Source of the DNA: Desulfobulbaceae bacterium
GTDB lineage: Bacteria; Desulfobacterota; Desulfobulbia; Desulfobulbales; SURF-16
Assembly: GCA_020444175.1 (NCBI GenBank)
Contig: JAHLLM010000027.1
Span: 3,910 to 67,909, forward strand
Reading direction: 5' to 3'
DNA: 64,000 bases
Shown: in pieces, positions 36,836 to 51,569 of the stretch
How positions within the stretch are numbered: the stretch's first letter is position 1
Layout: the number at the start of each line of letters is the position of its first letter
Position numbers and translations under genes: made by a program
Notes under the pieces: model-generated
What the model was told of the DNA's origin: nothing
The model's database searches: none
What the model saw: the letters and a program-made list of their open reading frames with translations, nothing else

Positions 36836-37177
36836 TTTCTTCACCAGATAGATGGCCAATCTTTTTCAGTCATGGACAAGATAATCATGCATGTTTACAG
36901 GCCCGGAAGGGAAAAAAAGCGTGTTTACATTATGGAAATATTTTGTTCACCTATCGGTATGCTGTAGGAACATCATGAATGTTCAGTTGTATCTAGGGGT
37001 TGTTACGCTAAAGCGCAATAGGTATAGATACCTAGGTATAGTTTCCCAGACAAAAGGTGAAATACAAATAATTTTGTGAGTATTACTACTTAGGTGGTTT
37101 TTCGGAGGTATTTCTACAGGAAAAAATTTTTTATTTTTTTTAAGAAGAAGTTATTTTTTTCAAAGAAAAAAAGATAA

Positions 37178-37939
37178 CTACACGGTTCTGTTCCAACTCT
37201 GTCCTGCTTTAAAAAAGTCCTTCAAGGTAACCAGACCGTTTTTTTGCAATGTTTTCACAAGAAAAAGAAAAAGATAGGCGGTCTGCAGGGCGTCCTGTAA
37301 TGCATCATGGGCCGGAAACAATGGCAGGTCATATTCCTTGCACAGATCGGTCAGATTATAAGATACCTGGAGATTAAGTTGATCGTGATACCTGCCCCAT
37401 ACTTTTTCTCTATAGATTTGTGCTAACCGCAGGGTGTCAAGGCAGGGAGTTTTGATTGTTGATCCAAAATGGATTTTGGCTGCATTATTGATAAATCGTG
37501 TATCCAGATCGATGTAGTGTCCCACAAGAAACGAAGAACCGCAAAAATCAAGCAACCCAGGCAGAACATCCTGTATAGGCGGTGCAGTGTATAGCTCCTG
37601 GGGAGTGATTTGATGAATTAAAGTTGCGTCAGTGACATTTATTTTTCCTGGCCTAACCAGGGTGTAAAAAGTATGTCCTGCCATAATCTGTAAATTTTTA
37701 ACCAGTACAGCACCAACTGAAACGATCTCATCTTTTTGTTTGTTCATTCCAGTAAGTTCTGTATCAAGGACCACATAATCATATTCTTCGATGGGCATGT
37801 TCTGATCAATGGATTTAAAATAGGTGTGGTTTCGGACAAAAGCAGGATGAGTCGGTGGCTTATTTTTAAAAAACCGTAACAGATTAAGCACCTGTGCACC
37901 CCATGAAGATTTCGGTCTGCCCTTCTGCCTTATGTCCAC
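37178..37939 (-). CDS. DEDDh 3'-5' exonuclease (DnaQ / Pol III epsilon-like)
   Basis: ExoI VVLDTELTG, ExoII VGHYIDLDTRF, ExoIII HDALQDAL. Starts 17 bp after the oleD stop. Confidence 0.8.
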   Translation of the reverse strand: MDIRQKGRPKSSWGAQVLNLLRFFKNKPPTHPAFVRNHTYFKSIDQNMPIEEYDYVVLDTELTGMNKQKDEIVSVGAVLVKNLQIMAGHTFYTLVRPGKINVTDATLIHQITPQELYTAPPIQDVLPGLLDFCGSSFLVGHYIDLDTRFINNAAKIHFGSTIKTPCLDTLRLAQIYREKVWGRYHDQLNLQVSYNLTDLCKEYDLPLFPAHDALQDALQTAYLFLFLVKTLQKNGLVTLKDFFKAGQSWNRTV

Positions 37940-37956
37940 TTTTCATGCCCAAAGAC

Positions 37957-38970
37957 TCACACAAATCCATTCTCCTTCAACCAGAGAACCATCCTCTCCA
38001 TACCTTCTGCTGTTGAAACCTGAGGCACGTAACCAAAATCCACCCTGGCTTTGTCTATTGAAAACCAGTGGGATTTTGCCAGCTGTTCTGCCAGGAATCT
38101 CGTCATGGGTGGTTCATTCTGATTCCTGGTAAGCAAATAAAATTTTTCAATAAGTGCACCAAGTACATACGCCTTTTGAAATCCAACCCGTTTCGAAACA
38201 AGAGGAAGCCTGAGTCGGGAAAAAAGATCATTAATCCAGTTCCAGAGATTAACCGGTTCACCCTGGGAAATAAAATAGGCCTGCCCTGCAGCACTTGCGG
38301 TTTTTTCCAAATTTTCCGCAGCAAGCAGATGAGCCATGGCTACATTATCAATATATGAAATATCGACAATGTTTTCAGCTGTGCCGACGATTTTTAATTG
38401 TCTTTTTTTGCCACGCTCAACCAATCGGGGAATAAGGTTGGTGTCTCCTGGTCCCCAGACAAGATGGGGCCTCAAGGCCGTTGTAAGGAGACCTTCTGAA
38501 TTTGCCGAGAGGATCTTTTTTTCTGCTATAACCTTGGTTTTAGCATAATGACAGAGAAAATTCTCTGCATAGGGAACAGATTCATCCACTCCTTCAAGAT
38601 CATGATTCCTGAAAACAACACTCGGAGTGCTTGTGTACACCAGATTCCGGATCCCATTGTCCCGGCATGCCTGAAGAACATTTTCCGATCCTTGAACATT
38701 GATTGAATAGTAATCCTTGAAACTGCCCCAGATACCTGCCTTGGCTGCCACATGGAAAACAGCATCATGCTCCCGGAATGCTGACGACAAAAAATCAGCG
38801 TTCCGTATATCCCCGCAGATAACCGTTGCACCCATCCTGATCACATCAGGATAGGTATTGCGCCCAATTACCGTTGTCTCAATTCCACGGGCAAGCAGGA
38901 GTTTCACTATGGCCTTACCGACAAAACCTCCCCCCCCTGTGACGACTACTTTTTTCATTCTGCCAACCAA
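37957..38970 (-). CDS. oleD: OleD-like NAD(P)H-dependent 2-alkyl-3-ketoalkanoate reductase (3-beta-HSD / extended SDR family)
   Basis: VTGGGGFVGKAI Rossmann motif and YAKTK catalytic YxxxK. Last gene of the oleBCD-type run. Confidence 0.72.
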   Translation of the reverse strand: MVGRMKKVVVTGGGGFVGKAIVKLLLARGIETTVIGRNTYPDVIRMGATVICGDIRNADFLSSAFREHDAVFHVAAKAGIWGSFKDYYSINVQGSENVLQACRDNGIRNLVYTSTPSVVFRNHDLEGVDESVPYAENFLCHYAKTKVIAEKKILSANSEGLLTTALRPHLVWGPGDTNLIPRLVERGKKRQLKIVGTAENIVDISYIDNVAMAHLLAAENLEKTASAAGQAYFISQGEPVNLWNWINDLFSRLRLPLVSKRVGFQKAYVLGALIEKFYLLTRNQNEPPMTRFLAEQLAKSHWFSIDKARVDFGYVPQVSTAEGMERMVLWLKENGFV

Positions 38971-39086
38971 CCTAACGTCAAAGTCACCCTAAAAATGTTA
39001 TTTACCACAAAATTCACGAAAAACATGAAGGAGTAATTCGTCTTTTCTTTTTATGTTTCGTGTTGAGAGGAAAAATCACATCCAAA

Positions 39087-40763
39087 TCAATAAATTCCCT
39101 GTTGTTCGGTAGCCCACACAGCAAGCTTTTCCCTGAAAATTTTAGCATTATGGCGTATATCTACAGGAAACGAAGGATGTATGAGAAACTTGGTAATTTT
39201 TTTTGTCAAAGGATTTGCCTGGGCAAGTTCTGCCAGTTCTTTAAAAAAGATTTTCTCATCTTCAATAGAATCATACGGTTCTACTATGAGAACTGGCTCC
39301 TGCCGGCCTGCCGGACCAACGCCTACCAGTGCGGACCTGAAAACTTTTGGATGCTCATTAAATATTGCCTCACAGCATATGGTATAGAGTATCTCCTGCT
39401 CGGTTATAACACGATGGGCCTTTCTACCGCAAAACCACAATCGTCCCTGTTCATCAAAGTATCCCATATCGCCCATTCGGTGCCAGAATTTCTCACCGTC
39501 ACCTATTTTGGCGAGCCGATTCTCCGTTTCATTATTATCATAGGCCCGTGTGACCACATCACCTGTAACAATAATCTCCCCTATTTCATTTGCACCAAGA
39601 AAAAAAGCATCCCCTATGTGCTGCACAGGCCCTTCGACTGACTTTATTATTTTTATGATTATTCCGGGAAGAGGTCTTCCCACACAAGTTCCGGCCCCTT
39701 TACGGGTCAGATCCCATGTTTCCGATACGACTTCACTGCCTGTTATAGAGGCTATAGGAAGAGATTCAGTTGCGCCATAGGGAGTAAACACTTCACCGTC
39801 CGGGGCCATGATTTTTTTAACGCGTTCAATAAGCTCGCCTGAAACCGGCGCACCGGCCATGAGAACTTTGTTTACCCCCAACCTGATATTTTCTTTCAGA
39901 CAATAGCGGCTGACAACATTCCAGATGGCCGGTGACCCAAAGGAATAAGTGACGTGATGAGCCTGTATCGAGGCTATAAATTTCTCCGGATCAACTTGGG
40001 CGGGCCGAGTGGGATCCATGTCAGGGATGACTGCACAGGCCCCTAACGCGGTTGAAAAAAGAGCAAAAAGAGGAAAGGCCGGCTGATCTCGATCATAGGC
40101 CGTTATTCGGTAATAATTTCGAATATGCTGCAGTTGAGCATAAAAAATTCCGTGAGTGTACTGTACTCCCTTTGGAGGCCCCGTGCTTCCCGTAGTGAAT
40201 ATTACTGCAGCCAGTTCATCTCTGCCGGAATTCACCATTGAAAAATCATCGTCAGCGCGAGCGGCAAGTCGTTTAATGGATCGCACAAAAGGCAAAGATA
40301 CAGAGCTGACGCAAAACGATAACTTGATACTCTTAAAAGGCTTTCTGAAAATATTTCTAAAAACATAGGCTTTTGGGATGCCGATAAACACCTGGGGTTT
40401 GACTGAGGCAATACAGCGCAGGAGATTTTTGTACCCCATGCCCGGATCGATGAGAATTACCACGGCACCCATCTGAAAAAGAGCAAAAGTAAGACTGACA
40501 AAATCAAGAGACGGTCTCACCATCAGAATGACCCGGTCGCCCTGCCGAACTCCCCCGGCAACCAAGGCGTTGGCATACCGTCTTGATTTTTCGGATAACT
40601 CCCCAAATGACCACTGCTCCCCCCCTTTCTTCGAAGGGGCAATTAAAGCAACGCGATCAGGAAAATGAGCTGCGGCAGATGCCAATGTTTTTGCTATATT
40701 GTAGGAAGTAGCCAATGGACTGTAAGAAAGTTTTGTTGGTAATGCGCCCGCCCCTGAATGCAA
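39087..40763 (-). CDS. oleC: OleC-like beta-lactone synthetase (AMP-dependent synthetase/ligase family)
   Basis: AMP-binding motifs FTTGSTGPPKGV, YGATE and GDMGYFDEQGRLWFCGRK. Sits between the OleB-like and OleD-like genes. Confidence 0.75.
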   Translation of the reverse strand: MHSGAGALPTKLSYSPLATSYNIAKTLASAAAHFPDRVALIAPSKKGGEQWSFGELSEKSRRYANALVAGGVRQGDRVILMVRPSLDFVSLTFALFQMGAVVILIDPGMGYKNLLRCIASVKPQVFIGIPKAYVFRNIFRKPFKSIKLSFCVSSVSLPFVRSIKRLAARADDDFSMVNSGRDELAAVIFTTGSTGPPKGVQYTHGIFYAQLQHIRNYYRITAYDRDQPAFPLFALFSTALGACAVIPDMDPTRPAQVDPEKFIASIQAHHVTYSFGSPAIWNVVSRYCLKENIRLGVNKVLMAGAPVSGELIERVKKIMAPDGEVFTPYGATESLPIASITGSEVVSETWDLTRKGAGTCVGRPLPGIIIKIIKSVEGPVQHIGDAFFLGANEIGEIIVTGDVVTRAYDNNETENRLAKIGDGEKFWHRMGDMGYFDEQGRLWFCGRKAHRVITEQEILYTICCEAIFNEHPKVFRSALVGVGPAGRQEPVLIVEPYDSIEDEKIFFKELAELAQANPLTKKITKFLIHPSFPVDIRHNAKIFREKLAVWATEQQGIY

Positions 40764-40908
40764 TAGAACAAACAGGAGAGAACCACATATATTTAAAATT
40801 CGAAATACAAAGCACGAAATACGAAAAAATTTTGCAATCGTGAATGATCAAAAAATAAAAAATTCCGTTGGTTCGCGACAAAAAAACGAAGCAAACAAGG
40901 AGAAAAAA

Positions 40909-41787
40909 CTAATCCGCTCCATTTTTGGCCAAAAAATTCTCAACAAGCGGGCCGATACTGTCAAAGGCGTCCTCAAGCACATAATGACCAGCATTTTTAA
41001 AGTAGTGGCATTCTGCCTGCGGAAACCTCTTCTGCCACTCCTTATAAAATGCATCATGAAAACAAAAATCCTTCCCGCCCCAGGAAATGAGCATTGGTGT
41101 CTTGGTAAACAATCGTAAACCTTTGTCGATCTCATCGATAGTCCGCCAGGAAGCATCTTTCTCTGTTAAAGGGATATCCTGCACAAATCGCAAGGTGGCA
41201 ATTCTATTTTTCCATGAATTATAGGGAAACAGGTAGCCACGGGCAATTTCTTTTGTCATTTTCCTGGTCACAGCCATATGCACGGCAGCACCGGCAAAGG
41301 CATTCAATCCCTGAATCAAAAGAGGTCCGAGAAAAGGAGTCCTGCATATTTTTATACGCCAGGGAATGCTAGTGGAGTGAAAAGCTGCGGTATTCAGGAT
41401 AACAAGGGATTGAATGGCAACCGGATTCCGTACGGCGTACCCCATACCGATCGCTCCACCCCAGTCATGGACGACGAGAGAACATCTACCTATCTGCAGG
41501 TGATCAAGAAGGCTTTGCAGGTTATCAATATGGTCTTTAAGCCGGTAGGGATACCCTTGAGGTTTGTCAGAAAGACCGCAACCAAGATGATCCGGAACTA
41601 TGACTCGATAGGAACGTTTAAGGAGATTTGCCAGGTTTCGGTAATAAAATGACCAGGATGGATTCCCATGAAGCATTACAACGACAGGGCCCTTGCCAAC
41701 ATCAATATAGGACATTTTGCCATCAGGCAACTGATAAGAAGAGGGAGTAAAAGGATACTCCGAAAGATAATCAGAACTTTCAGTCAT
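40909..41787 (-). CDS. oleB: OleB-like beta-lactone decarboxylase (alpha/beta hydrolase, haloalkane-dehalogenase-like)
   Basis: HGNPSWSFYYRN and the nucleophile-Asp motif VVHDWGG. ATG at 41787 (MTESSD) is preferred over the upstream TTG at 41814. Confidence 0.75.
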   Translation of the reverse strand: MTESSDYLSEYPFTPSSYQLPDGKMSYIDVGKGPVVVMLHGNPSWSFYYRNLANLLKRSYRVIVPDHLGCGLSDKPQGYPYRLKDHIDNLQSLLDHLQIGRCSLVVHDWGGAIGMGYAVRNPVAIQSLVILNTAAFHSTSIPWRIKICRTPFLGPLLIQGLNAFAGAAVHMAVTRKMTKEIARGYLFPYNSWKNRIATLRFVQDIPLTEKDASWRTIDEIDKGLRLFTKTPMLISWGGKDFCFHDAFYKEWQKRFPQAECHYFKNAGHYVLEDAFDSIGPLVENFLAKNGAD

Positions 41788-41858
41788 CCTGTTTAAACCC
41801 TTATTTCGGAACAACAGCTAAAAAGCGTGCATGTTGCAAGTTGGATTGCTGCTTCACG

Positions 41859-42473
41859 TTATGATTTGCCACCAAGGAGCTTATCATGATCCACAACGAT
41901 GGAGTTGTCACTGCTTTCTGCTAATGGACGCGAGGCAGGAAAGGCATTTTCTTTAATTAATTGCTGCAGGTATCCCAAATGCTCCTGAACCATTTTTTCC
42001 GTTTTTTTGCGTTCAGCTATTTCCTTTTCCAGCTGCTCATTCAGGATTGCCAGTTCCTCGGTCTGTTTTTTCAGACTATCACGATGATGTTTCAGATCAA
42101 GGTGCGTCTTGACTCGCGATTTGACGATCCCCATACTAAAGGGCTTTTTTATGTAATCAACTGCACCTAATTTCAGACCTTTTTCTTCCTCTTCGTCATC
42201 GGTAAGTGCAGTAACAAACATCACCGGGATATCACTGGTCTTTTTATCGGATTTCAGTTTTTCACAGACCTCATAGCCATTCATTTCAGGCATCATGATG
42301 TCCAATAAAATCAGATCGGGCTGAGGATCAGAAGCAGCAATTTTAATCCCTTCCTGGCCATTATCTGCAAAAACAACGTCATAATCCTCTTTTAACACCT
42401 CTACAAGAATTCGTATATTTGCTGGAATATCATCAACAAATAAAATTCTACTTTTATTCTGAGGCGCTGACAT
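41859..42473 (-). CDS. response regulator, receiver domain plus C-terminal coiled coil, no recognisable output domain
   Basis: ILFVDD, LILLDIMMPEMNGYEV (phospho-acceptor Asp region), VMFVTAL and KP. The C-terminus is heptad-rich (LKKQTEELAILNEQLEKEIAERKK). Confidence 0.85.
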   Translation of the reverse strand: MSAPQNKSRILFVDDIPANIRILVEVLKEDYDVVFADNGQEGIKIAASDPQPDLILLDIMMPEMNGYEVCEKLKSDKKTSDIPVMFVTALTDDEEEEKGLKLGAVDYIKKPFSMGIVKSRVKTHLDLKHHRDSLKKQTEELAILNEQLEKEIAERKKTEKMVQEHLGYLQQLIKENAFPASRPLAESSDNSIVVDHDKLLGGKS

Positions 42474-42693
42474 GGTGGCTCCTTTTGTAAGAAGTGAGAG
42501 AATTTCTTATTAGAAGTTATAGAATATAAAGAAGTTATAGAATTTAAACAAATATTAAATGAACCATATCTGTATAATTTTTACAAGCTGCCGCAATATT
42601 CCTTGCATTACCAAATATCAAAAAAAGAAATAAAAAACCATGCTTTCCGTTCTATATTCTCTAACTTCTTTAACTCCTCCATTAACTCCTGCA

Positions 42694-43728
42694 TTACCAT
42701 TCCACCCCCAGCATCAGACAGTTTATACCACTGCCGATACCAAGCAAGGCCGCTTTCTCTCCAGACTTAAAAATTCGCCGTTCGAGCCCGATTGCCATGG
42801 TAAGAGGAGCAGATACAGAGCCGACATTACCCCAAAAAGGTAAAGTTGCAAAATTTTTTCCCTCATCAAGTTGTAAAGTTTCAAAAAGTAGGCGGGCATG
42901 AGCCCGACCAACCTGATGACAGAAAAAATGGTCAATATCTTTTTGGTGCCAGGCAAGTTCATCCTGAAAATCACGCCATGTCAGAGCTGCAGTTTCAACA
43001 CCTCTCTTCAGCAGTTCCTCGGAATCTGTTGCCATTAAAATACCTTTGGAAGTGTCCTGAGCCCCCTGACAAAGATTGTTGTAACCTGTATTGGTTCTGA
43101 CAGCTCCGCCTTTCAGGCAGTGGCCTGTATCATGTTCTTTTTTACTTCCCATGACCATGGCAACTGCGCCTGAACCGATTGTAAAAGAGGCAAAACTCGA
43201 TTTAACGGATTTCCTGGTCAATGATTCGTCGCTGAGCAGGTGCTGAATAGTAGACTCAACAAGACTCTCAGCGGTCTCACCGGCCACGACCAGCCCTTTT
43301 TTCAACTGACCCAGTTCAATCATGTTTGCCAGCATGACCATACCGTTTAAAAAACCGAGACAGGCATTGGAAAGATCAAATATCTGGCACTTTTCCGGCA
43401 ACCCCAAATGTCGATGCACAAAAGATGCAGTAGCCGGCTCCATCATATCTCGGGAAACAGAAGTAAATATCAGGCAGCCTATCTCATCAGGAGAAACACC
43501 GGCTGCCTCAAGGGCTTTTTTACCGGCACGGGCGGCGCCTTCACTTGGTTTCGTGCCGTCCAGCCAAAAACGGCGGGCATGAATACCGCTCATTAATTCA
43601 AGTCTCCCCTCGGGGAGCTTTAAGCGTTCATAAACAGGGGCAAGACGCTCTTCGAGTTCTGCAGAAGTAAGCACATGGGGCGGAGCTTCGTAGGCCGGAG
43701 GATAGAGGCAGACTTGGGAATAAAGCAT
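42694..43728 (-). CDS. oleA: OleA-like thiolase (FabH-like head-to-head Claisen condensing enzyme)
   Basis: Thiolase fold with active-site Cys in FDLSNACLGFLNG, SRDMMEPATA, and late H/N motifs (FFCHQVG, WGNVGSVS). 344 aa. Co-linear with oleB, oleC and oleD. Confidence 0.72.
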   Translation of the reverse strand: MLYSQVCLYPPAYEAPPHVLTSAELEERLAPVYERLKLPEGRLELMSGIHARRFWLDGTKPSEGAARAGKKALEAAGVSPDEIGCLIFTSVSRDMMEPATASFVHRHLGLPEKCQIFDLSNACLGFLNGMVMLANMIELGQLKKGLVVAGETAESLVESTIQHLLSDESLTRKSVKSSFASFTIGSGAVAMVMGSKKEHDTGHCLKGGAVRTNTGYNNLCQGAQDTSKGILMATDSEELLKRGVETAALTWRDFQDELAWHQKDIDHFFCHQVGRAHARLLFETLQLDEGKNFATLPFWGNVGSVSAPLTMAIGLERRIFKSGEKAALLGIGSGINCLMLGVEW

Positions 43729-43734
43729 CTTCGA

Positions 43735-44538
43735 TCAACCAACCACTTTGCTGACAATATCTGCGTCAAAATAATTAATCCCCATACCGGCATCAACCAC
43801 AAGACATTGCGCAGTCATACCTGAAGAGCGAGGAGAAAGCAGGAACGCGGCAACTGAAGCGGCTTCCGCAGTTTTCAACGCCGCCTTGCGAAGTGTAGCG
43901 GTTTCCGCATAAAGATAGCTGTCCACATAACCTGGAATTCCAGCCGAAGCTGACGTTTTAAGAAGTCCGGGGCAGACTGCATTAAAACGAATTTGTGAAA
44001 AATCGGAAAAGCTTTTGGCAAGGAAACAAAGTGATGACTCAAGAGCGGCTTTCACCGGAGCCATGTACCCGTAATTTTCAGCCGCCATCCTTGTGGTGGA
44101 AATGGAGATTGTCACAACAGACGCCTGTGAGGAGAAAATATTTCTAAAATGATTGCATATTGAAATCAGTGAAAAGCAGGAAATGTCAATCGCCTCCAGA
44201 AAATCTCTTTTAACCGTCTCGTGAAACGGCTTCAACCCTTCAGAATAATTTGCAAAAGCAATAGAATGAACAAGCCCGTCAATTTTTCTGCCGTCAAGAT
44301 ACGATTCAATCTCCTTGCTCACCTTGATGATATTTTCTTCTTGTTCTACATCACAGACAAAAACCTGGGATTCAGGAAAGAGTTTTTCCGCATTTTTACG
44401 ACGCTCCTCACTCCTGACCACATGGATAACTTCAGCCTCTTCAGATTTAAGAACTTGAGCAATGGCGCAGGCAACAGATTTCTTGTTCGCCAGCCCAAAG
44501 ACAACAAATATTTTTTTTTCAATATCAAGGAAACTCAT
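43735..44538 (-). CDS. enoyl-ACP reductase, FabI-like SDR
   Basis: [14 protein letters not shown] (FabI-type N-terminus) and [13 protein letters not shown] (Y-x6-K, compare E. coli NYNVMGLAKASLE). The stop is 6 bp before the oleA start. Confidence 0.78.
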
Positions 44539-44674
44539 AGAAAATTAGGTTTATTTAGTCTGTTGATGACAGAATAATTTTCAAAAATTGTTGCATTGAC
44601 CACTAAAAACAACCGGGCCTAGTCACGAAAAAAAATCAATTGATCAAAAGGATAGTGAAAATGAATTCAGCCTC

Positions 44675-44702
44675 CAGTCCTCAGTCCTCAGTCCTTAGTC
44701 CT
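44675..44702. repeat. heptanucleotide microsatellite (CAGTCCT x3 plus TAGTCCT)
   Basis: Four tandem 7-mers. The FabZ-like stop codon (44695..44697) lies inside the array. Confidence 0.9.
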
Positions 44703-45144
44703 GTTTTAAGGCGCAGGCAAAGCCGACTTTAACAGCAGTTTTATTTCTGACAAGAACCTGACCACTCAGAAACCAGGCTGGACCCACCTGCTCTTTTAGT
44801 CTGACCTTCAAGGTTATCGTATCGCCTGGTCTTACCTCGCGTTTGAATTTTGCTCCTGTTATACGGGTTAAAACAGGAACTCCGGTTATTGCCGCATCAT
44901 CATTTTTATTTTCTTTGCGAATCAGCTCGGAGATAAGAAGAGACCCAGCCTGGAATACAGCTTCACAGAGGATAACTCCCGGCATTATGGGATAATGGGG
45001 GTAATGGCCTTTAAATAGTTCAAGATCTTCTGAAATGGATTTCTGGGCAATAATAGTGTCATTCTCCAGTTGGATAACCTCATCAACCCAAAGAAAGGGA
45101 GGGCGGTGGGGGATTCTTTCTAAAATAAATTCTTTAGAGTCCAC
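44695..45144 (-). CDS. 3-hydroxyacyl-ACP dehydratase, FabZ/FabA-like hotdog fold
   Basis: GHYPHYPIMPGVILCEAVFQ matches the FabZ HFP..PVMPGVL..EA active-site block. 149 aa. Overlaps the FabG-like stop by 11 bp. Confidence 0.82.
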   Translation of the reverse strand: MDSKEFILERIPHRPPFLWVDEVIQLENDTIIAQKSISEDLELFKGHYPHYPIMPGVILCEAVFQAGSLLISELIRKENKNDDAAITGVPVLTRITGAKFKREVRPGDTITLKVRLKEQVGPAWFLSGQVLVRNKTAVKVGFACALKQD

Positions 45145-45874
45145 CGTTCACCTCCAGAACCGACCCGGTTATATAAGCAGCATGTGATCCGGCAAGAAAC
45201 AGAACCGCATCAGCTACCTCCTCAGGAGTCCCAAAACGCCGCATGGGAACCATTTTTTTATATTCTTTAACCTGCTCCTTGGTTAAATCGTTAATCAGTT
45301 CAGTGGCGATAAATCCGGGAGATACGCAGTTAACAGTAATTTTCCGTTTGGCGGTTTCTTTGGAAAGCGACTTCATCATTCCAACCTGCCCTGCCTTGGA
45401 GGCTGCATAATTGGCCTGCCCGGCAAAACCGAGATGAGCCATGGGAGAGGTAATGAAAATAATACGCCCATATTTCTGTTTTACCATGAGCTGAACGGCA
45501 AATTTGGACATAGTATAGGAACCGGTAAGATTAATATCTATAACCCTGTTCCAATCTTCTTGAGGCATCATGGCCAGTACGCCGTCACGTCTTATTCCGG
45601 CGTTGTTTACCAGGATATCGATGGTTTCGTGCTCCTCTTCAATTTCCTGATACAATTTTTCCACAGCCTCATAGTCACTCACATCACATTGGTGGAGCTG
45701 CAATCGTTCACCATGTTGATCCACATCCTTTCTGAACTGCTCCGCGGCATCACGATTGCCACCATAAATACCAATGACAAAAGCACCCTGATCAAGAAAG
45801 GCTGAAGCAATAGCCCTGCCCAGACCACGAGTAGCTCCGGTAACGATAACTTTTTGGTTGGTAAAATCAGACAT
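45134..45874 (-). CDS. 3-oxoacyl-ACP reductase, FabG-like SDR
   Basis: VTGATRGLGRAI, NNAG and YAASKAG (YxxxK). ATG at 45874 (MSDFTNQ) is preferred over the upstream GTG at 45904. Confidence 0.85.
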   Translation of the reverse strand: MSDFTNQKVIVTGATRGLGRAIASAFLDQGAFVIGIYGGNRDAAEQFRKDVDQHGERLQLHQCDVSDYEAVEKLYQEIEEEHETIDILVNNAGIRRDGVLAMMPQEDWNRVIDINLTGSYTMSKFAVQLMVKQKYGRIIFITSPMAHLGFAGQANYAASKAGQVGMMKSLSKETAKRKITVNCVSPGFIATELINDLTKEQVKEYKKMVPMRRFGTPEEVADAVLFLAGSHAAYITGSVLEVNGGL

Positions 45875-46139
45875 AGTAATTCTGTCACTGAATCCACGGA
45901 ACACACGGAAATTTTATTGTATCATTCTTTTTACCGTAGCTTGTGGATATGTAAAATTTATCAGCTGACCAACGTGCATCTCCCTTGCAGGGAGATACTT
46001 TAGAAGTTGTGCTTCGATTGATTTAGAAATATTCTATAACTTCAGTAACTTCTCTTTATTCTTTTAACGTCTTTAACTCCTCGAAATCCTCGTCTTTCTG
46101 CATTCTTCAGTGAATTCCAGAGGGTACGCAGCTGAAAAT

Positions 46140-47549
46140 TCAACTCCGCAAATACGCATCAGCATCGTTGGCAACAATAACACCATAGTTTATGGCCCCA
46201 AGCCAGCCGGACATAATAATGCCTACCGATCCTACATGAAAAAGCCCTGGGACAACTTTAAAAATATTCCTTGAAATATCGAGCCCAGGAAATTTTGTAC
46301 CAAAAGAGGTCCCTTTGGTATGCAATGTATACCTGTTGAATGTTTTGGGTGTTGCGGCTTCCAGCCAATCACATTTTTGACGGATATCCGGAATATACCG
46401 TTCAAGATCATTCAGAGAACGTTCAATCATATCCTGCTTTGCCTTCTCGTAGTCTTCATCGGATAACCCGGCCCAATCATCGTAATTACTGTTCATTGAG
46501 GCTACCACTGTATAGTCGGGGTGATCCGGACGTGTTTCAGGATAATAGACAGAGAAAGTCCTGCTCTTTGTATTGAAATCTCGCATCTCAGCGGCATCGA
46601 AACTCTCGGCAGTGGAAGTAAAAAGTAAGTCACCGACCTCGGGGAAAGATTCTCCCTGCCTTATGCCCATATAGACCTGACAGCTTGAATTATTAATCTG
46701 AACTTTGTCAAACTCTCCAAGAAAATCATCAGGAAACACTTCCCGTCCGGCAAGATTATCAACTGTATTTGTTATTCCACTGTTTGAAATAACGCATGGT
46801 GCGGAGATAACCCTCTCCCCCACCGCAACGCCCTTAACCTTCCCTTTTTCGATGATGACATGGTCAACTTTGGCCTTGGTGCTGATGGTCACACCGTTAG
46901 CCAACAGCTCATCACTCATCATACCTATCAACTTATCGGTTCCGCCCCTGAATGTAAAGACACCCTTATTCATAAAATTTGAAAAAACAATGCCATACGT
47001 GATGGCCGGATCATCAAGGGTGGAGCCATTGGCGTATGAAATAGGCTCCATGAGGAGACGATGCACATCCGTGCGCCCGGGAAAAAACTTTTCAAAAAGC
47101 TCCCTCGTGGTCATGGATTGATCGTCATAAAAATTCATTTTACGAACCGTTGTAAAAAAATCATCTATAACGGCTGAAGGTATTCCAAATTTGGAATTGA
47201 GAATCTGTGTAAAATCGACTTTATCAAAGGTTGTTTTCAGGGAAAACTGGGGATTGTCGAAAACAATATTTTTAAGCTGGACAATTGAGTTTTTTATGGA
47301 CTCATTCCAATATTTTCGGCAGGTCTTGACCATTCCGTATGGGAAACCATGCAGGGAAACATCAAAGGTGTGGCCTTTGCGCTTAAACCATGTTGCCAGT
47401 CCACCAAGCCTATGATGATGTTCAAGGAGCAAAACACGGTGACCGGCGCGAGCTAATCGATTTGAAACAGTTAGCCCGCCAAGGCCTGAACCTATAACGA
47501 TAACATCGTAGCTGGAGTCGATTTTGTCTATTGGAGTATAGCTATTCAT
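46140..47549 (-). CDS. FAD-dependent oxidoreductase, phytoene desaturase (CrtI) / RetSat-like family, copy 1
   Basis: N-terminal dinucleotide fold DVIVIGSGLGGLTVSNRLARAGHRVLLLEHHHRLGG. 469 aa, typical CrtI-family length. Confidence 0.75.
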   Translation of the reverse strand: MNSYTPIDKIDSSYDVIVIGSGLGGLTVSNRLARAGHRVLLLEHHHRLGGLATWFKRKGHTFDVSLHGFPYGMVKTCRKYWNESIKNSIVQLKNIVFDNPQFSLKTTFDKVDFTQILNSKFGIPSAVIDDFFTTVRKMNFYDDQSMTTRELFEKFFPGRTDVHRLLMEPISYANGSTLDDPAITYGIVFSNFMNKGVFTFRGGTDKLIGMMSDELLANGVTISTKAKVDHVIIEKGKVKGVAVGERVISAPCVISNSGITNTVDNLAGREVFPDDFLGEFDKVQINNSSCQVYMGIRQGESFPEVGDLLFTSTAESFDAAEMRDFNTKSRTFSVYYPETRPDHPDYTVVASMNSNYDDWAGLSDEDYEKAKQDMIERSLNDLERYIPDIRQKCDWLEAATPKTFNRYTLHTKGTSFGTKFPGLDISRNIFKVVPGLFHVGSVGIIMSGWLGAINYGVIVANDADAYLRS

Positions 47550-47593
47550 ATTTTATATTGAAGTTACAAATATAATTTATATATCAAGTAGTT

Positions 47594-47938
47594 AGAGAAG
47601 TTAGAGGAGTTAGAGAAAAAAGAAATCTTAATCTTAATTGGAAGAAATTGCTTTTGCGTATCCATTCAGTTATTTGTAGGTTGGGTTAATTTCCAATAAC
47701 CTCTGTTCTTGTTGGGTTATAGGTCTTTCAACTTTTTTACTTATTGCTTGCTACCGAAAACCCAACAATTCTGGTAGCATGAAACGAATTTAACCCAACC
47801 TACAATGGAATAACTCATGCGCCTTTTGCCATACAATCAAATCCTCAAATGATTTTGCCGGTGCAGTCACGTAACCAAATTCTCTCCATTCTTTAACTTC
47901 TCTTACTTCTTTTACCTCTTTTCCTTCTCTAACTTCTG
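47594..47938. repeat. nested inverted-repeat region between the two CrtI-like genes
   Basis: Outer arms AGAGAAGTTAGAGGAGTTAGAG (47594..) versus CTCTAACTTCT (about 47928..47938). Inner perfect 15-bp arms TGTAGGTTGGGTTAA (47676..) / TTAACCCAACCTACA (about 47790..). Innermost arms TTGTTGGGTT / AACCCAACAA and GCTACC / GGTAGC. Confidence 0.8.
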
Positions 47939-49315
47939 CCCCATCAATACATGCTGATTCACCATGCTGACACCGCTCAACATGGAACCGACTATTCCGA
48001 GAAATCCCTGGTCAGTACCAGCAATGAATAGGTTTTTAAAAGGAGTTTTTCCATCCTTGATCTTGAAAGAGCTACCGTAAACCGCTCCCTCTGCCTTACC
48101 TGTAAATTTTTCGATGGTAACAGGAGTAAAGCTGTCCTCATATACAATGTTTTGTCGATAATTCCCAATGATTTTACTGGTAATATCCTTTGATTTCTCT
48201 CCCCAATCCTGTTTCATCAGCTTATATTCAGCGGGAGAGGCATTTTTCCAGAGTTCATAATTTGCTGAATTGGTGACACGAACTTGAAAATGTTCCCCAG
48301 GTGGCAGCCCCTGGAAATTTTCAGGAAAGCAGATAACCCCCCAATCCGGGTCAACCGGTTCCTTTGGCCGACAATAATGCAAGGAATTTTTTTCAGAATA
48401 AAAAATGATAGTATGATCGGAAAGTATTTTTCCCCTTTCATGGTGAGGAAGAAGGTAAATGGATTCAACAAAACTCATTTTTCCTGAAAATTTGTCTTTC
48501 TCATGGGGCAGGGCAACCAGGTCCCAGGTTCCAGGAGCCCCTATGGTTGAAATAATATTTTCACAACCAATTGTTTCACCTGTTGAGAGGGTAACGCCGG
48601 TTATGACCTGGTCCTTTTTTTCAACTGATACAACCTGACTTTTATAACGTATTTCTCCCCCAAATGATTTGAATTTATCTACCAGCAAATCCAGAAATTC
48701 CTTCATGGTGCCATGGGGACGAAAAAAACCTTCCTTAAAAATTGACCTGAACATGATAACGAACTGACCAAAATCCATATCATGTTCGTCACTGTTCCCG
48801 TATACCATGAGTGGCAAAAGCAACATGTCTATGAGGAGTGGATCACGTAGATACTCTGCGATTTTTTTCCTTGTTGAAATCCAGGGACCAGGAGAAAATG
48901 CGTCAAAGTCATTGATAACTTGCTGTAACTTATCAAATCCATCAATTTCGGAAGGGAAAGAAGAAGCGATTTCTTCCCGCAGCAAATTAAAATCATTTGA
49001 AAAACAAAGGCTATGATCAGGAAAATGGATCAGGGAAGATCGTTGTTCATGGGTTTCAAACTTTTTTCGCGAAAGCTTTATCTGGCGGAAAAGACGATTG
49101 AGAGGCGCATGTTTGTCCGTTGGATCCGCAAAGTTGGTCATGGCGTGAAGACCTGTCTCAAACAAAAAGCCTTTGCGAAAATAATAGGAATTCAACCCAC
49201 CGGGAATTACATGCTTTTCAAGAATGAGGACAGAACCGCCGAAACGGGCAAAACGAATACCGGCGGCAAGCCCGGACAGGCCGCCGCCGATGATGATTAA
49301 AGAATATTCAGACAA
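47912..49315 (-). CDS. FAD-dependent oxidoreductase, phytoene desaturase (CrtI) / RetSat-like family, copy 2
   Basis: LIIIGGGLSGLAAGIRFARFGGSVLILEKHVIPGG. 467 aa. TTG start 6 bp after the ACP stop. Confidence 0.72.
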   Translation of the reverse strand: MSEYSLIIIGGGLSGLAAGIRFARFGGSVLILEKHVIPGGLNSYYFRKGFLFETGLHAMTNFADPTDKHAPLNRLFRQIKLSRKKFETHEQRSSLIHFPDHSLCFSNDFNLLREEIASSFPSEIDGFDKLQQVINDFDAFSPGPWISTRKKIAEYLRDPLLIDMLLLPLMVYGNSDEHDMDFGQFVIMFRSIFKEGFFRPHGTMKEFLDLLVDKFKSFGGEIRYKSQVVSVEKKDQVITGVTLSTGETIGCENIISTIGAPGTWDLVALPHEKDKFSGKMSFVESIYLLPHHERGKILSDHTIIFYSEKNSLHYCRPKEPVDPDWGVICFPENFQGLPPGEHFQVRVTNSANYELWKNASPAEYKLMKQDWGEKSKDITSKIIGNYRQNIVYEDSFTPVTIEKFTGKAEGAVYGSSFKIKDGKTPFKNLFIAGTDQGFLGIVGSMLSGVSMVNQHVLMGQKLEKEKR

Positions 49316-49321
49316 ACCAAA

Positions 49322-49573
49322 TTATATGTCTTTGAGTTTTGGTTCCAGATAATTAACGCAGCTTGTCAATGTGGCCAATTCAGGATAATCGGCCTCGGGG
49401 ATCTGCAGTTTATACCTTTTGCGAAGCTCCATAACTATATCGAGAAAATCCATGGAATCAAGATCAAGCTGGTCCCGAAGAGGTTGATCGGCATTGAGGT
49501 CATCCATTTCTGCATCTTCGTCAATATCTTCAATAATTTCTATAATAACGTCTTTTATGTCATCGCGTGTCAT
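49322..49573 (-). CDS. acyl carrier protein (dedicated, non-AcpP)
   Basis: Phosphopantetheine attachment motif QLDLDSMDFLDIVMEL. 83 aa and acidic. Confidence 0.85.
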   Translation of the reverse strand: MTRDDIKDVIIEIIEDIDEDAEMDDLNADQPLRDQLDLDSMDFLDIVMELRKRYKLQIPEADYPELATLTSCVNYLEPKLKDI

Positions 49574-49730
49574 GCTTTGCCTCGGTATATACTGACAGAA
49601 ATAAGAACATAGAACTAAGCGGCCAGAAGATGAACTCCTCCGGTTCTTTGTTAATTCTTATTATGTTTCCTGTCTTCTTATTTCTTAATTCTTAATTAAT
49701 TGACATTCAATATAAAATTCAAACTTTTCT

Positions 49731-49883
49731 GTATCTATTCAGCAAGGGCTCGAAATGGGCCTCAACTCCAGGCCGTAACTATTCAGATGTGCCTTAGATT
49801 TGGACAAACAGGCCTGCGAGGCTATAGCCCGTCTATGTGAGCAGGCCTGATCGTTCAAAGATGAGGTGCAGCTGAATGGTTAC
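49731..49883. mobile_element. MITE-like element, family B copy 2 (153 bp)
   Basis: Termini GTATCTATTCAGC / GTAACCATTCAGC (reverse complement). Perfect 8-bp target-site duplication ACTTTTCT (49723..49730 and 49884..49891). Its last 4 nt provide the third base of the final Val codon and the stop codon of the KAS gene. Confidence 0.85.
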
Positions 49884-51121
49884 ACTTTTCTTACTATTAC
49901 AACGGAATTAATACCCACCATGCCGAAGGAGTTATTCAAGATTGTTGTCACATTGTCAAGCTGTTTTGGTTTGTGACTGACAATATTAGGCAACGTGCAG
50001 TCTGGATCAAGGTTGTCCAGATTTATCGTCGGATGAACCAATCCATCGTCAAAGGCGGGAAGATTCCCTGCCAGTTCCAGAACACCGGCCGCGCCCATGG
50101 CATGGCCAATGTGACTTTTAGTGTTGTTTATATAGGTTGCATTACAGTCGTCAAACACTTCCTTTACAGCCCGACATTCCTCAACATCGCCCTGCCTGGT
50201 CCCGGTGGCATGGGTATTGATAATATCGATTTCTTCAGGAGCAAGATTTGCCCTTTTCAAAGCCAGGCGCATACATTCAGCCTGCCTGGGGCCATAGGGA
50301 AGGACAAAATCCCGGGCATCAGAATTCATGGCATAACCAGCGATTTCACCATAAATTCTTGCACCACGCTGGAGTGCCTTATCGAGCCTTTCCAATACAT
50401 AGACAGCCCCACCTTCGGAGATAACAATGCCGTTTCTGTCTCGATCAAATGGCCTTGATGCCATTTTGGGATCACTGTGCTCGGCGAGAGCACCCTGGGC
50501 CTTGAAACTTGCAAAAATCCCAAAAGAGTCGGTGCACTCGGAAATTCCACCACAGAGGGCCAGGTCAATCTCACCTAGTCGCAACATCTGCACCCCTTGA
50601 ATAAGAGCAGCATTTCCAGCAGCACATGCAGCCCCAACAGAATAGTGAGGCCCTGTAATACCCAGATTCATGGTAATCTCACCGGCAGGATTATTTAAAA
50701 CAGTCCGGGGATTATGATGGTGAGTCCAGTAATCGACGTTATAGTCGAACTGACTGATATTGTAGACTTCGTTTTCCGTCTCTACCGTTCCATGCTCGGT
50801 CAAACCAATATAGACGCCAGTCTGATTTTTGTCATATTCTGAAAAATCAATTCCTGCATCGATAAGGGCTTCATTGGCACAATAAACTCCGATACAGCCA
50901 GCCCGTGTACCCCGTTTATTCTCTTTTTTCTTACGATATCTTGTTTCGTCAAATGTACAGATGCCGGCAGGGGCACTGCCAAAATATCTGAGATCAATTG
51001 TGGTAATTTCACTGATCCCGGCAAGAAGTTTTTTTCGAAACTCGAATAAATTACTTGCATTGGGAGCGGCAAGACCAACACCGGTAATGACGATTCGTTG
51101 ATTTTCTGGTAAATTTTGCAT
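49880..51121 (-). CDS. beta-ketoacyl-ACP synthase, KAS I/II (FabF/FabB-like)
   Basis: Cys-His-His triad motifs VGAACAAGNAA, NTHATGT and KSHIGHAMGAAG. 413 aa. Confidence 0.88.
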   Translation of the reverse strand: MQNLPENQRIVITGVGLAAPNASNLFEFRKKLLAGISEITTIDLRYFGSAPAGICTFDETRYRKKKENKRGTRAGCIGVYCANEALIDAGIDFSEYDKNQTGVYIGLTEHGTVETENEVYNISQFDYNVDYWTHHHNPRTVLNNPAGEITMNLGITGPHYSVGAACAAGNAALIQGVQMLRLGEIDLALCGGISECTDSFGIFASFKAQGALAEHSDPKMASRPFDRDRNGIVISEGGAVYVLERLDKALQRGARIYGEIAGYAMNSDARDFVLPYGPRQAECMRLALKRANLAPEEIDIINTHATGTRQGDVEECRAVKEVFDDCNATYINNTKSHIGHAMGAAGVLELAGNLPAFDDGLVHPTINLDNLDPDCTLPNIVSHKPKQLDNVTTILNNSFGMVGINSVVIVRKV

Positions 51122-51278
51122 AATAAATGGATAATCCTAAAAATAAGAACTTTTTAAGATAGCTTATTTTTTATTATCTGTCGACCCATAAAATACAAAG
51201 CAGAAAGACTTGCTGATATGCGTCTGCCAAACTGATCTGTATTGACATTAAAATTTAAAAATTTTACGTAACAGTGAA

Positions 51279-51315
51279 GCAACAATGCGAAATCTTGATG
51301 AATTCGCATTGTTGC
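51279..51315. promoter_or_regulatory. perfect 13-bp palindrome upstream of the lipid operon (candidate operator or hairpin)
   Basis: GCAACAATGCGAA-N11-TTCGCATTGTTGC, about 160 nt upstream of the KAS start codon. Confidence 0.4.
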
Positions 51316-51316
51316 A

Positions 51317-51416
51317 CTTTAGAGTGAAAAAGTCCTGAAACTGCCCATCCAGCAACGCAACGTCAACAGGTTGCATACGTGTCGGCGGCGGTTGAGTGAT
51401 TTTTTTACAAAACCAT
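51317..51416 (-). mobile_element. MITE-like element, family C copy 2 (degenerate)
   Basis: The reverse complement aligns over about 100 nt with 10612..10710 (ATGGTTTTGTAAAAAAATCACTCAACCGCCGCCGACACGTATG...). One terminal repeat has decayed and no target-site duplication is retained. Confidence 0.55.
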
Positions 51417-51569
51417 CAAATCTTAAAATTAAAAGCCAAAAACACATATCCTGTTGACAGTATTCTGGTTCATGGCCCAAGGCGATCACCGCGGTTAACT
51501 CACCAGCTGATACAGCTGTCAATCAGACAATAAACAAATTCTCACTCTGTAAAAAAATAAGGGATAATA

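Follow-up and report, generated by a model that had tools for sequence, protein, structure and literature searches.

A conserved gene cluster that may couple private acyl-chain synthesis to olefin formation in an uncultured sulfate-reducer-like bacterium

The OleABCD pathway, described in Xanthomonas campestris, Shewanella oneidensis and Micrococcus luteus, is encoded by four genes in a canonical order, and ole clusters function without an adjoining fatty-acid/flavoprotein module (PMC7064751). In Geobacter bemidjiensis, pfa and ole genes lie in tandem (pfaDABC-oleABCD-pfaE) and C31:9 is made (PMC3098273, PMC4882568). Such pfa–ole clusters, also found in Photobacterium profundum, pair oleABCD with a neighbouring synthase that is devoted to acyl chains and has a carrier protein of its own, and special acyl-ACP is proposed to pass directly to OleA (PMC4882568, PMC3098273, PMC6463001). 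FASII clusters with phytoene-dehydrogenase-like genes were reported by Rattray et al. in 2009 from Kuenenia stuttgartiensis and Desulfotalea psychrophila and proposed as 'ladderane' clusters (PMC2649909); this is the work on anammox bacteria and a psychrophilic sulfate reducer to which a first-pass annotation of the present locus had referred. D. psychrophila carries the tandem phytoene-dehydrogenase-like genes DP2405/DP2406 in its FASII cluster and has no pfa-type PKS; it makes C31:8 and C31:9 (PMC2649909). Our literature search found no paper joining fatty-acid/flavoenzyme clusters of this kind to ole genes, no biochemistry on the combination and no description of ole clusters fused to an ACP-based acyl-chain module like the one analysed here.

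We analysed a 64,000-nucleotide stretch of DNA (the window) from an uncultured sulfate-reducer-like bacterium, in which ole genes are joined to their own small fatty-acid-building set. Twelve ORFs, all on the minus strand and all at the positions given in the first-pass annotation, occupy 37957–51121. Their proposed identities held up, with NCBIfam and Pfam agreeing on the family of each product and catalytic motifs present in the translations. OleA, the head-to-head Claisen thiolase (42694–43728, 344 aa), scores 443.9 bits on NF006720 (cut-off 285) and matches X. campestris OleA structures over its full length (E 4e-71; the best FabH reaches 4e-20), confirming its placement with OleA rather than FabH; its SNAC123LG motif, E97, H271 and N301 align with C143, E117, H285 and N315 of the X. 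campestris enzyme. The OleB-type alpha/beta hydrolase (40909–41814) carries HGNPSWSF, HD117WGG and H277, scores 164 bits on NF002938 (cut-off 241), has haloalkane dehalogenases as its best PDB matches and follows OleA in all ole-linked loci. OleC, the AMP-dependent olefin beta-lactone synthetase (39087–40763), reaches 678 bits on NF006754 (cut-off 478) and 197 bits against a generic acyl-CoA ligase; the two equivalog models for olefin beta-lactone synthetases (cut-offs 850 and 900) give it 534 and 526 bits. OleD, the 2-alkyl-3-oxoalkanoate reductase (37957–38970), is a 3-beta-HSD-type SDR (Pfam 3Beta_HSD); the two OleD equivalog models (cut-off 580) score it at 406 and 396 bits, and the next-best family, HpnA, at 147 bits. 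NCBIfam scores, PDB matches and Pfam thus uphold the earlier assignment of the hydrolase, AMP-ligase and SDR. As in the described pathway, the four genes stand in canonical order and the catalytic residues of OleA are conserved; Ole-specific NCBIfam models are by far the best matches of OleC and OleD, with scores under the equivalog cut-offs. The window differs in carrying an orphan response regulator between oleA and oleB, and in the fusion of its ole cluster to a private ACP-based acyl-chain module.

That module opens with a divergent FabF-type beta-ketoacyl-ACP synthase (KAS; 49880–51121, 413 aa) that has both the N and C ketoacyl-synt domains of Pfam and the residues C166, H304 and H340. 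It scores 313.8 bits on TIGR03150 fabF, under the 493.75 cut-off, and 221 bits against Pseudomonas aeruginosa FabF, whose gating loop NSFGFGGTN corresponds to NSFGMVGIN here. The adjacent ACP (49322–49573, 83 aa), with D-S40-M as its phosphopantetheine site, does not qualify as an AcpP equivalog, as it scores 34.7 bits on TIGR00517 against a cut-off of 70.45; in relatives it always lies between KAS and the first flavoprotein gene. A FabG-like 3-oxoacyl-ACP reductase (45134–45904; S153, Y166, K170; 293.1 bits on TIGR01830, cut-off 297.75) and a FabZ-type 3-hydroxyacyl-ACP dehydratase (44695–45144; Pfam FabA domain; H47, E61; 109.1 bits on NF000582, cut-off 113) are followed by a divergent FabI-like enoyl-ACP reductase (43735–44538; Y155-x6-K162) with a best FabI equivalog score of 161 bits (cut-off 362) and 127 bits against Staphylococcus aureus FabI. 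The first-pass annotation had called this a complete elongation cycle. One full cycle is indeed encoded, but the 12-gene cluster contains no FabD, FabH, PPTase or plsX, FabG is missing from one group of related clusters and FabZ from locus L003; lacking FabD, FabH and PPTase, the module is not a self-sufficient fatty-acid synthase. With these absences and scores below the housekeeping cut-offs, the fatty-acid genes look like a specialised branch and not the cell's main fatty-acid synthase. The junctions earlier described as tight are exact for the three values given (ACP to first flavoprotein 6 bp, FabG/FabZ overlap 11 bp, FabI-like to OleA 6 bp), but four other gaps are wider than that description implied: KAS–ACP 306 bp, between the flavoprotein genes 362 bp, second flavoprotein to FabG 235 bp and OleA to response regulator 220 bp. 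Because homologue alignments begin further in, the annotated TTG/GTG starts of FabG, OleB, OleC and OleD are probably 4–19 codons too far upstream, with M11 the probable true start of the FabG-like protein.

The two flavoproteins, CrtI-a (47912–49315, 467 aa) and CrtI-b (46140–47549, 469 aa), are about 23% identical to each other and score 50.9 and 51.6 bits, respectively, on Pfam Amino_oxidase (gathering score 19.8 for CrtI-a). AlphaFold 2 models (pLDDT 91.4 and 86.4) find 4rep as a best Foldseek match for both (TM 0.74 for CrtI-a, 0.76 for CrtI-b); CrtI-a also matches 4dgk, and is about 16% identical to these structures. CrtI-a forms a distinct subfamily, with 190 representatives at E ≤ 1e-30 among 1.84 billion, and CrtI-b is better conserved, its best 120 homologues being 75–87% identical compared with 58–77% for CrtI-a. 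Placement of both proteins in the CrtI family was correct at the level of fold and superfamily, but on the curated TIGR02734 crtI_fam model they reach 56.8 (CrtI-a) and 82.7 bits (CrtI-b) against a cut-off of 238. They share the FAD Rossmann motif and overall fold of the CrtI/CrtD/CrtISO carotenoid desaturases and isomerases, from which they differ in this low score and in sequence identity of about 16%, and the window holds no carotenoid genes near them.

Comparison with relatives shows how firmly the halves are joined. The cluster order recurs in loci L001, L002 and L004 at 65–89% identity and in L003 at 57–79%. It is found in MAGs of the Desulfobulbales as well as in two cultured isolates, Desulfolithobacter dissulfuricans and Desulfogranum mediterraneum. 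Both isolates carry it with alaS on one side and the ATP synthase operon on the other; polysaccharide genes adjoin it in the window but not there. As read from these genomes, the cluster is conserved and changes chromosomal site as a whole. At 34–57% identity, ole genes lie within the module or directly behind KAS-ACP-CrtI: L058 reads KAS-ACP-CrtIa-OleABCD-CrtIb-FabG-FabZ-FabI, L095 and L096 (GC 0.36, CrtIa 34% identical) have KAS-ACP-CrtIa-OleABCD converging on CrtIb-FabG-FabZ-FabI, and in L101 (KAS-ACP-CrtIa-OleABCD) oleA overlaps the flavoprotein gene by 16 bp. In 17 of the 28 metagenome loci with both flanks sequenced, an ole gene lies no more than 10 kb away. A search of relatives thus recovers the gene order, including interleaved ole genes in divergent loci, and supports an evolutionary coupling of the fatty-acid and ole halves, which the first-pass annotation had described as run together; because the order is kept in many independent loci, the coupling is, on gene order, far beyond chance. 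The two halves are not always linked: L100, L090 and part of L014–L021 carry the module but no ole genes, and a single flavoprotein homologue stands alone in L034, L094, L097 and L099. The closest association is that of ACP with CrtIa, and the KAS-ACP-CrtIa trio alone in L005 and L098 likewise points to ACP-bound substrates. In L090–L092 the module is accompanied by a PPTase, a malonyl transacylase and a PlsC-type acyltransferase, without ole genes, a context that suggests a maker of special acyl chains.

The reading we favour, with moderate confidence, is that the eleven enzyme genes and the regulator embedded among them act as a single biosynthetic unit whose product is a long-chain olefin, probably polyunsaturated. 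FabD and PPTase of the cell would charge the private ACP, on which the divergent KAS would lengthen the chain while the private FabG, FabZ and FabI-like enzymes run the reductive cycle, the carrier shielding intermediates from the housekeeping enoyl reductase. On these ACP-bound intermediates the two flavoproteins may introduce or preserve double bonds with no need of O2, most plausibly through a redox-neutral isomerisation like that of CrtISO or through quinone-linked dehydrogenation. OleA would then draw two acyl chains directly from ACP and condense them head to head, after which OleD would reduce the 3-oxo group, OleC close the beta-lactone and OleB decarboxylate it to a cis-olefin, with the regulator linking expression to a signal. 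We infer the flavoproteins' substrate and reaction type, as well as the product's degree of unsaturation. That a flavoprotein can install a cis double bond on acyl-ACP without O2 has a precedent in Helicobacter pylori FabX, a dehydrogenase/isomerase flavoenzyme that serves the oxygen-independent synthesis of unsaturated fatty acids; FabX is an FMN enzyme of unrelated fold, and homology is not implied. CrtI-type chemistry leads to conjugated double bonds. Those of Shewanella C31:9 are methylene-interrupted (PMC4882568), a mismatch that counts against the favoured reading. Also against it, the anammox homologues kuste3336 and kuste3607 gave no CrtI complementation, and anammox clusters expressed in Escherichia coli yielded no new fatty acids (PMC4790861).

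The module would thereby take the functional place of the Pfa megasynthase in Shewanella and Geobacter, and the conserved unit may be a route to polyunsaturated hydrocarbons that needs neither oxygen nor the known PUFA megasynthase. As noted in the first pass, no pfa megasynthase is present within the 64,000-nucleotide window. The window resembles the linked pfa–ole clusters in setting carrier-based acyl-chain synthesis beside oleABCD, with the same proposed hand-over of acyl-ACP to OleA. In place of the multidomain enzyme, however, it encodes separate type II proteins together with the two CrtI-fold flavoproteins; its dehydratase is of the His/Glu FabZ type, with no FabA-type dehydratase/isomerase domain. 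The clusters of Rattray et al., likened here by description of gene content, similarly group a FabF paralogue, ACP, FabZ, FabG and amine-oxidase/CrtI-like flavoproteins; the window lacks their radical SAM or B12 enzymes and the non-canonical FabF missing its active-site Cys, and ole genes fall outside that description. The transfer of acyl chains from ACP to CoA, which the first-pass annotation had left open, already has a largely sufficient published answer in direct use of acyl-ACP by OleA: Allemann et al. (2019) found OleA to work in a fadD-null host and concluded that acyl-ACP is the in vivo substrate (PMC6463001). Our survey of 89 loci found no recurrent thioesterase, ligase or acyltransferase.

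Other arrangements of the same genes were weighed against a single olefin pathway. The module might set only chain length, with the CrtI-fold enzymes desaturating, isomerising or saturating the condensed beta-lactone or final olefin. Their best structural matches, 4rep and 4dgk, are carotenoid desaturases, and the condensed product, a long-chain hydrocarbon whose central double bond is cis, bears a formal resemblance to 15-cis-phytoene, the substrate of CrtI. We nonetheless regard such late action as unlikely, given that CrtIa is tied to KAS-ACP and not to ole, separated from ACP by 6 bp in the window, that the trio lacks a nearby ole gene in L005 and L098, and that L090 has the full module and a PlsC-type acyltransferase but lacks ole genes. 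An equally doubtful proposal is that two independent lipid pathways lie side by side, the module making a special membrane fatty acid and ole using ordinary acyl chains, as neighbours through membrane adaptation and common regulation. Modules without ole (L100, L090–L092, part of L014–L021) and ole clusters that work without the module (PMC7064751) fit this arrangement, but the interleaved and overlapping layouts of L058, L095 and L101 would be hard to keep without a common product, and the whole block shifts between chromosomal sites.

It is highly improbable that these are simply the organism's housekeeping fab genes, upstream of ole by happenstance. All four elongation-cycle activities are present and FabG and FabZ fall just under their equivalog cut-offs; against this, KAS, ACP and the FabI-like protein fall far under theirs, fabD, fabH and plsX are absent from the cluster, which does contain two flavoprotein genes, relatives can do without FabG or FabZ and the KAS gene is split in the viable isolate D. 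dissulfuricans.

The orphan response regulator (41859–42473) has a Pfam Response_reg domain at residues 10–120 and no output domain in the Pfam search; by eye, its C-terminal tail resembles a coiled coil. L001 and L004 have it in the corresponding position, L003, L007 and L008 lack it, and receiver-domain proteins lie in or beside the cluster in seven loci.

Twelve successive ORFs on the minus strand, at 37957-51121, make up the cluster, and the ORF list places them exactly where the first-pass annotation had reported a co-directional run. [quoted passage not shown] The translations contain every motif quoted in that annotation, and the catalytic residues of the KS, ACP, KR, DH and ER functions are all in place. 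The four ole genes lie together, with the one regulator gene between oleA and oleB. The three tight junctions noted earlier are also right (6 bp, an 11-bp overlap and 6 bp); four wider gaps of 220-362 bp differ in length among relatives, and Rfam and tRNA scans of the large intergenic gaps found neither an Rfam family nor a tRNA. Across 36500-52500, predicted promoters (37, versus 29.6 +/- 4.9 in shuffled sequence) and terminators (16, versus 16.3 +/- 3.4) equal the shuffled level, so the scan is uninformative on operon structure.

OleA and FabH had been named as possible relatives of the thiolase. It aligns end to end with the crystal structures of Xanthomonas campestris OleA (E 4e-71, compared with 4e-20 for the best FabH), passes the NF006720 model (444 bits, cut-off 285) and retains the four catalytic residues of the X. 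campestris enzyme, with Cys143, Glu117, His285 and Asn315 corresponding to C123, E97, H271 and N301. It is thus an OleA rather than a FabH. OleC scores 534 and 526 bits on two olefin beta-lactone synthetase equivalogs (cut-offs 850 and 900), only 197 bits on generic ligase models, and passes NF006754 (678 bits versus 478); OleD scores 406 and 396 bits on two 2-alkyl-3-oxoalkanoate reductase equivalogs (cut-off 580), with the next family at 147. Because the Ole-specific models score far highest yet stay under their strict cut-offs, OleC and OleD appear to be divergent members of the Ole families. OleB carries a dehalogenase-type Asp/His pair (D117, H277), and its best matches are haloalkane dehalogenases. 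PDB sequence searches with OleB, OleC and OleD returned generic dehalogenase, ligase and SDR matches, with no Ole-pathway structures among them.

One alternative to a dedicated precursor module is that the fatty-acid genes are simply the housekeeping fab set. FabG (293 bits, cut-off 298) and FabZ (109, cut-off 113) fall just short of their equivalogs. KAS (314 bits against a fabF cut-off of 494) and ACP (35 against an AcpP cut-off of 70) lie far under theirs, as does the FabI-like protein (161 against 362); KAS matches Pseudomonas aeruginosa FabF at 221 bits and has NSFGMVGIN in place of the gating loop NSFGFGGTN. FabD, FabH and a phosphopantetheinyl transferase (PPTase) are absent from the cluster and from the rest of the window, which holds no further fab genes; a PPTase and a malonyl transacylase do occur in some distant relatives of the cluster. 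The low scores of KAS, ACP and the FabI-like protein together with these absences make a housekeeping set very unlikely. The earlier description of a complete elongation cycle holds for one full cycle; the loading and priming functions FabD, FabH and PPTase are missing. Sub-cut-off scores, a single cycle and the lack of these three functions point to a specialised branch that must borrow its loading functions.

An aryl-polyene or flexirubin-type cluster was also considered. Some dehydratase homologues match ApeI/ApeP-like Pfam models, and FabG scores 255 bits on FlxB, under the cut-off of 340; the presence of an enoyl reductase and ole genes and the absence of aryl-priming genes led us to reject this assignment. 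The absence of a pfa megasynthase is borne out by the window ORFs, which include no multidomain KS-AT-ACPn-KR, KS-CLF-DH or ER Pfa genes. Twenty flanking ORFs were scanned for families, and nine large ORFs (at least 150 aa) at 323-17026 were read by length and order only. The scanned flanks are ordinary, with lysS, lolCD-like genes, bamA, mfd, surA, rodZ and recO among them, and also hold two DUF4212-symporter pairs, polysaccharide genes and a type I secretion set; by length and order, the ORFs at 323-17026 resemble tig-clpP-clpX-lon, among others.

We noted that in the complete genome of the isolate Desulfolithobacter dissulfuricans (AP024233; locus L007) KAS is called as two ORFs of 265 and 151 aa (L007:2478-3727) and OleD as two of 246 and 87 aa (L007:13579-14615). 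These splits may be frameshifts, with the pathway decaying in this strain, or may come from sequencing errors; a real KAS split would mean that KAS is not an essential housekeeping enzyme.

The two flavoproteins share about 23% identity with one another, and their sequence likeness to known enzymes does not extend beyond the FAD motif at the N terminus and portions of the substrate domain. Neither reaches the cut-off of the CrtI family TIGR02734 (56.8 bits for 'a' and 82.7 for 'b', where 238.1 is required), and their best sub-threshold NCBIfam matches are carotenoid isomerase and CrtD, not CrtI proper. AlphaFold2 models them with high confidence (pLDDT 91.4 for 'a' and 86.4 for 'b'), and the top Foldseek match of both models is the carotenoid desaturase 4rep (TM 0.74 for 'a' and 0.76 for 'b'). 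CrtI itself (4dgk) ranks second for 'a' and 21st for 'b', and the archaeal proteins of unknown function 3ka7 and 3nrn are in the top four for both; these structural matches have 15-18% sequence identity. The predicted structures thus confirm an FAD-binding, amine-oxidase-type, CrtI-like fold, and the family scores do not confirm membership of the curated CrtI family. A carotenoid context is not apparent, as the Pfam prenyl-synthase and squalene/phytoene-synthase families were unmatched in the 20 scanned flanking ORFs. The subfamily of flavoprotein 'a' is small and has sharp limits (190 representatives at E<=1e-30 among 1.84 billion); its named members come from Desulfobulbales, Candidatus Auribacterota, Phycisphaerae, Victivallales, Lentisphaerae and Verrucomicrobiota (Pelagisphaera). 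Among the best 120 homologues of each, 'b' is better conserved than 'a' (75-87% versus 58-77% identity).

Comparative genomics bears out the proposed coupling of the fatty-acid/flavoprotein genes to the ole genes, in metagenome-assembled genomes (MAGs), isolates and metagenome loci. The full gene order recurs in three Desulfobulbaceae/Thermodesulfobacteriota MAG contigs at 65-89% identity, and in a fourth, at 57-79% identity, without FabZ and the regulator. Two cultured isolates, D. dissulfuricans (complete genome) and Desulfogranum mediterraneum, also carry the cluster, there flanked by alaS and the ATP synthase operon; this differs from the neighbourhood in the window, and the KAS-to-OleD block therefore moves as a unit. 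Querying metagenomes with the alignment of flavoprotein 'b' recovered 80 loci at 52-76% identity, 28 of which had at least 4.5 kb of upstream and 5 kb of downstream sequence. Within this subset, KAS-ACP-flavoprotein-a lies upstream of 'b' in 20 of 28 loci, and at least one ole gene is found within 10 kb in 17 of 28.

If the block instead encoded two independent pathways that merely have common regulation, the two halves should have little reason to be interleaved. In one metagenome locus (L058) the order is KAS-ACP-CrtIa-OleA-OleB-OleC-OleD-CrtIb-FabG-FabZ-FabI; in a pair of loci with a GC content of 0.36 (L095/L096), KAS-ACP-CrtIa-OleABCD converges with CrtIb-FabG-FabZ-FabI, and CrtIa is just 34% identical; and a compact KAS-ACP-CrtIa-OleABCD locus (L101) has a 16-bp overlap of oleA with the flavoprotein gene. 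These rearranged loci are the most telling sign of coupling, and with locus GC ranging over 0.36-0.66 the association spans distant lineages. The link is frequent, not obligatory: an Auribacterota contig (L100) has the seven-gene module without ole; three loci (L090-L092) have it beside a PPTase, a malonyl transacylase and a PlsC-type acyltransferase, again without ole; and in Desulfobulbales-like loci (L014-L021, L049) tol-pal genes separate the module from a convergent ole operon. The KAS-ACP-CrtIa trio stands on its own in two loci (L005 and L098), and some loci hold lone single flavoprotein homologues. The picture from these gene arrangements is of a putative modular synthase of special acyl chains, with KAS-ACP-flavoprotein-a as its tightest core and OleABCD as its commonest partner. 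In a further locus (L012, PVMK01126732.1), KAS and CrtIa are broken into several pieces that lie in different frames; the contig is probably of low quality, with many frameshifts, and is unfit for gene-content arguments.

How acyl-ACP would reach OleA had been left as an open question, with no thioesterase, acyl-CoA ligase or acyltransferase visible. That observation extends to all 89 related loci, in and beside which none of the three is recurrent; the recurrent accessory genes are receiver-domain regulators (7 loci), a DUF1232 protein (4 loci) and a possible PPTase (3 loci). The question itself has an answer in the literature. Co-expression of oleA with pfaABCDE yielded a 31:8 ketone in an Escherichia coli fadD mutant, and the authors concluded that the in vivo substrate of OleA is acyl-ACP from the carrier domains of the synthase (Allemann et al. 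2019, PMC6463001). A private ACP adjoining OleA fits this model of direct acyl-ACP use, which would make a transfer enzyme unnecessary. The DUF1232 protein (77-80 aa) lies between the FabI-like gene and OleA in four Desulfobulbales loci (L007:9737-9970, L008:9520-9762, L009 and L010) and is missing from the window, where these genes are 6 bp apart. Three clusters (L027, L061:9934-10779 and L083) encode a protein of some 281 aa whose sequence has, by eye, features of a 4'-phosphopantetheinyl transferase, and L090 has an annotated ACPS gene. As read from sequence, these PPTase-like genes would agree with a requirement, in some lineages, for a dedicated enzyme to activate the private ACP.

The previously mentioned precedent for such clusters in anammox bacteria and a psychrophilic sulfate reducer proved real and gives the idea partial precedent as a 2009 hypothesis. 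In Kuenenia and Desulfotalea psychrophila, Rattray et al. (2009, PMC2649909) identified FASII clusters that include phytoene-dehydrogenase-like genes, among them the tandem pair DP2405/DP2406 of the latter; they reported that pfa-type PKS genes are absent from both genomes and that C31:8 and C31:9 hydrocarbons make up 5% of D. psychrophila lipids, and proposed a FASII extended by an anaerobic desaturase, with the ole genes outside their analysis. DP2405/DP2406 and kuste3336/kuste3607 are likened to the window flavoproteins by published description, not alignment, and the best 120 matches of each protein search included no named Desulfotalea protein. In other anaerobes, for example Geobacter bemidjiensis, pfa-like genes stand in tandem with oleABCD and C31:9 is made; D. 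psychrophila is missing from the list of pfa carriers (Shulse and Allen 2011; Yoshida et al. 2016; PMC3098273, PMC4882568). Unlike these pfa-ole systems, the window ole pathway has, where Pfa would stand, a precursor module of type II enzymes that includes flavoproteins. Kuenenia flavoproteins fail to complement crtI, and E. coli given the anammox clusters makes no novel fatty acids (Javidpour et al. 2016, PMC4790861); the function of the anammox flavoprotein gene is still without experimental evidence (Dietl et al. 2023). Our literature searches found no paper on a fused ole and fatty-acid/flavoprotein cluster, and a brief earlier mention is possible.

Collectively, the best-supported reading is that the cluster block encodes one pathway. 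Chains would be built on the private ACP by the divergent KAS with the help of the private reductive enzymes, flavoproteins 'a' and 'b' would modify the ACP-bound intermediates, OleA would condense two chains straight off the ACP, and OleD, OleC and OleB would finish a long-chain cis-olefin by way of a beta-lactone. The flavoproteins might instead act late, on the condensed hydrocarbon; the adjacency of ACP and flavoprotein genes, the trios that stand on their own and the modules found without ole favour action on acyl-ACP. Two reactions on acyl-ACP can be envisaged: a redox-neutral isomerisation of the kind seen in the CrtISO branch, where the best sub-threshold matches lie, or a dehydrogenation linked to quinone. 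Methylene-interrupted products would be easier to reconcile with isomerisation than with classical CrtI chemistry. Polyunsaturation of the product is an indirect suggestion, drawn from the lipids of D. psychrophila and from the parallel with pfa-ole systems. We advance only tentatively, as possible and short of probable, the fuller proposal that the seven-gene module is a discrete type II, O2-independent synthase of polyunsaturated acyl chains, in which a flavin step replaces FabA-like domains and which feeds OleA or phospholipids.

For the making of C31:8/C31:9 chains by strict anaerobes that lack pfa, such as D. psychrophila, the cluster offers a concrete, widely conserved candidate. Because D. 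mediterraneum and D. dissulfuricans are cultured carriers, the polyunsaturation question is directly testable. If the proposal is true, the part played by FabA-like domains in Pfa megasynthases would fall to a flavin-dependent isomerisation or dehydrogenation of chains held on a private ACP. Alongside O2-dependent desaturases and Pfa synthases, this would constitute a third way of making polyunsaturated lipids. Direct feeding of OleA would then yield hydrocarbons of the C31:8/C31:9 type in Desulfobulbales and in bacteria of the PVC group, with phospholipids the destination in other lineages, and relatives of the enigmatic 'phytoene dehydrogenase' of anammox ladderane clusters would gain a function. 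Installing or shifting double bonds on acyl-ACP would be new enzymology for the CrtI superfamily, and the cluster offers a small discrete-enzyme toolkit for engineered olefins. Were the product an ordinary mono-olefin, the locus would reduce to ole genes plus a module dedicated to chain length, a new architecture of modest interest.

Receiver-domain signal-transduction proteins occur in or beside the cluster across separate lineages (window 41859-42473, L032, L036, L063, L068 and L085), a recurrence suggesting that expression is regulated, perhaps by temperature or stress. The window receiver is an orphan with a C-terminal tail that looks coiled-coil-like by eye; in L085, an ORF of 989 aa from this receiver-domain family lies between CrtIb and FabZ.

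Just downstream of the cluster on the minus strand is a tandem duplicate of a DUF4212 small protein with a sodium:solute symporter (32487-34508 and 34787-36859); the symporter at 34787-36553 is VC_2705-type (TIGR03648, 844 bits), and that at 32487-34235 is assigned to SSF by Pfam scan only. A co-directional DEDD-type 3'-5' exonuclease gene (37178-37939, minus strand) begins 17 bp past the OleD stop; relatives do not keep it beside the cluster, so it probably has no part in it. On the plus strand, a 365-aa ORF without a Pfam match lies between tRNA-Leu and lysS (17649-18746), and a 161-aa ORF without a Pfam or NCBIfam match (51570-52055) is divergent from the KAS gene; the latter occupies the same position in a related locus (L004), at 69% identity.
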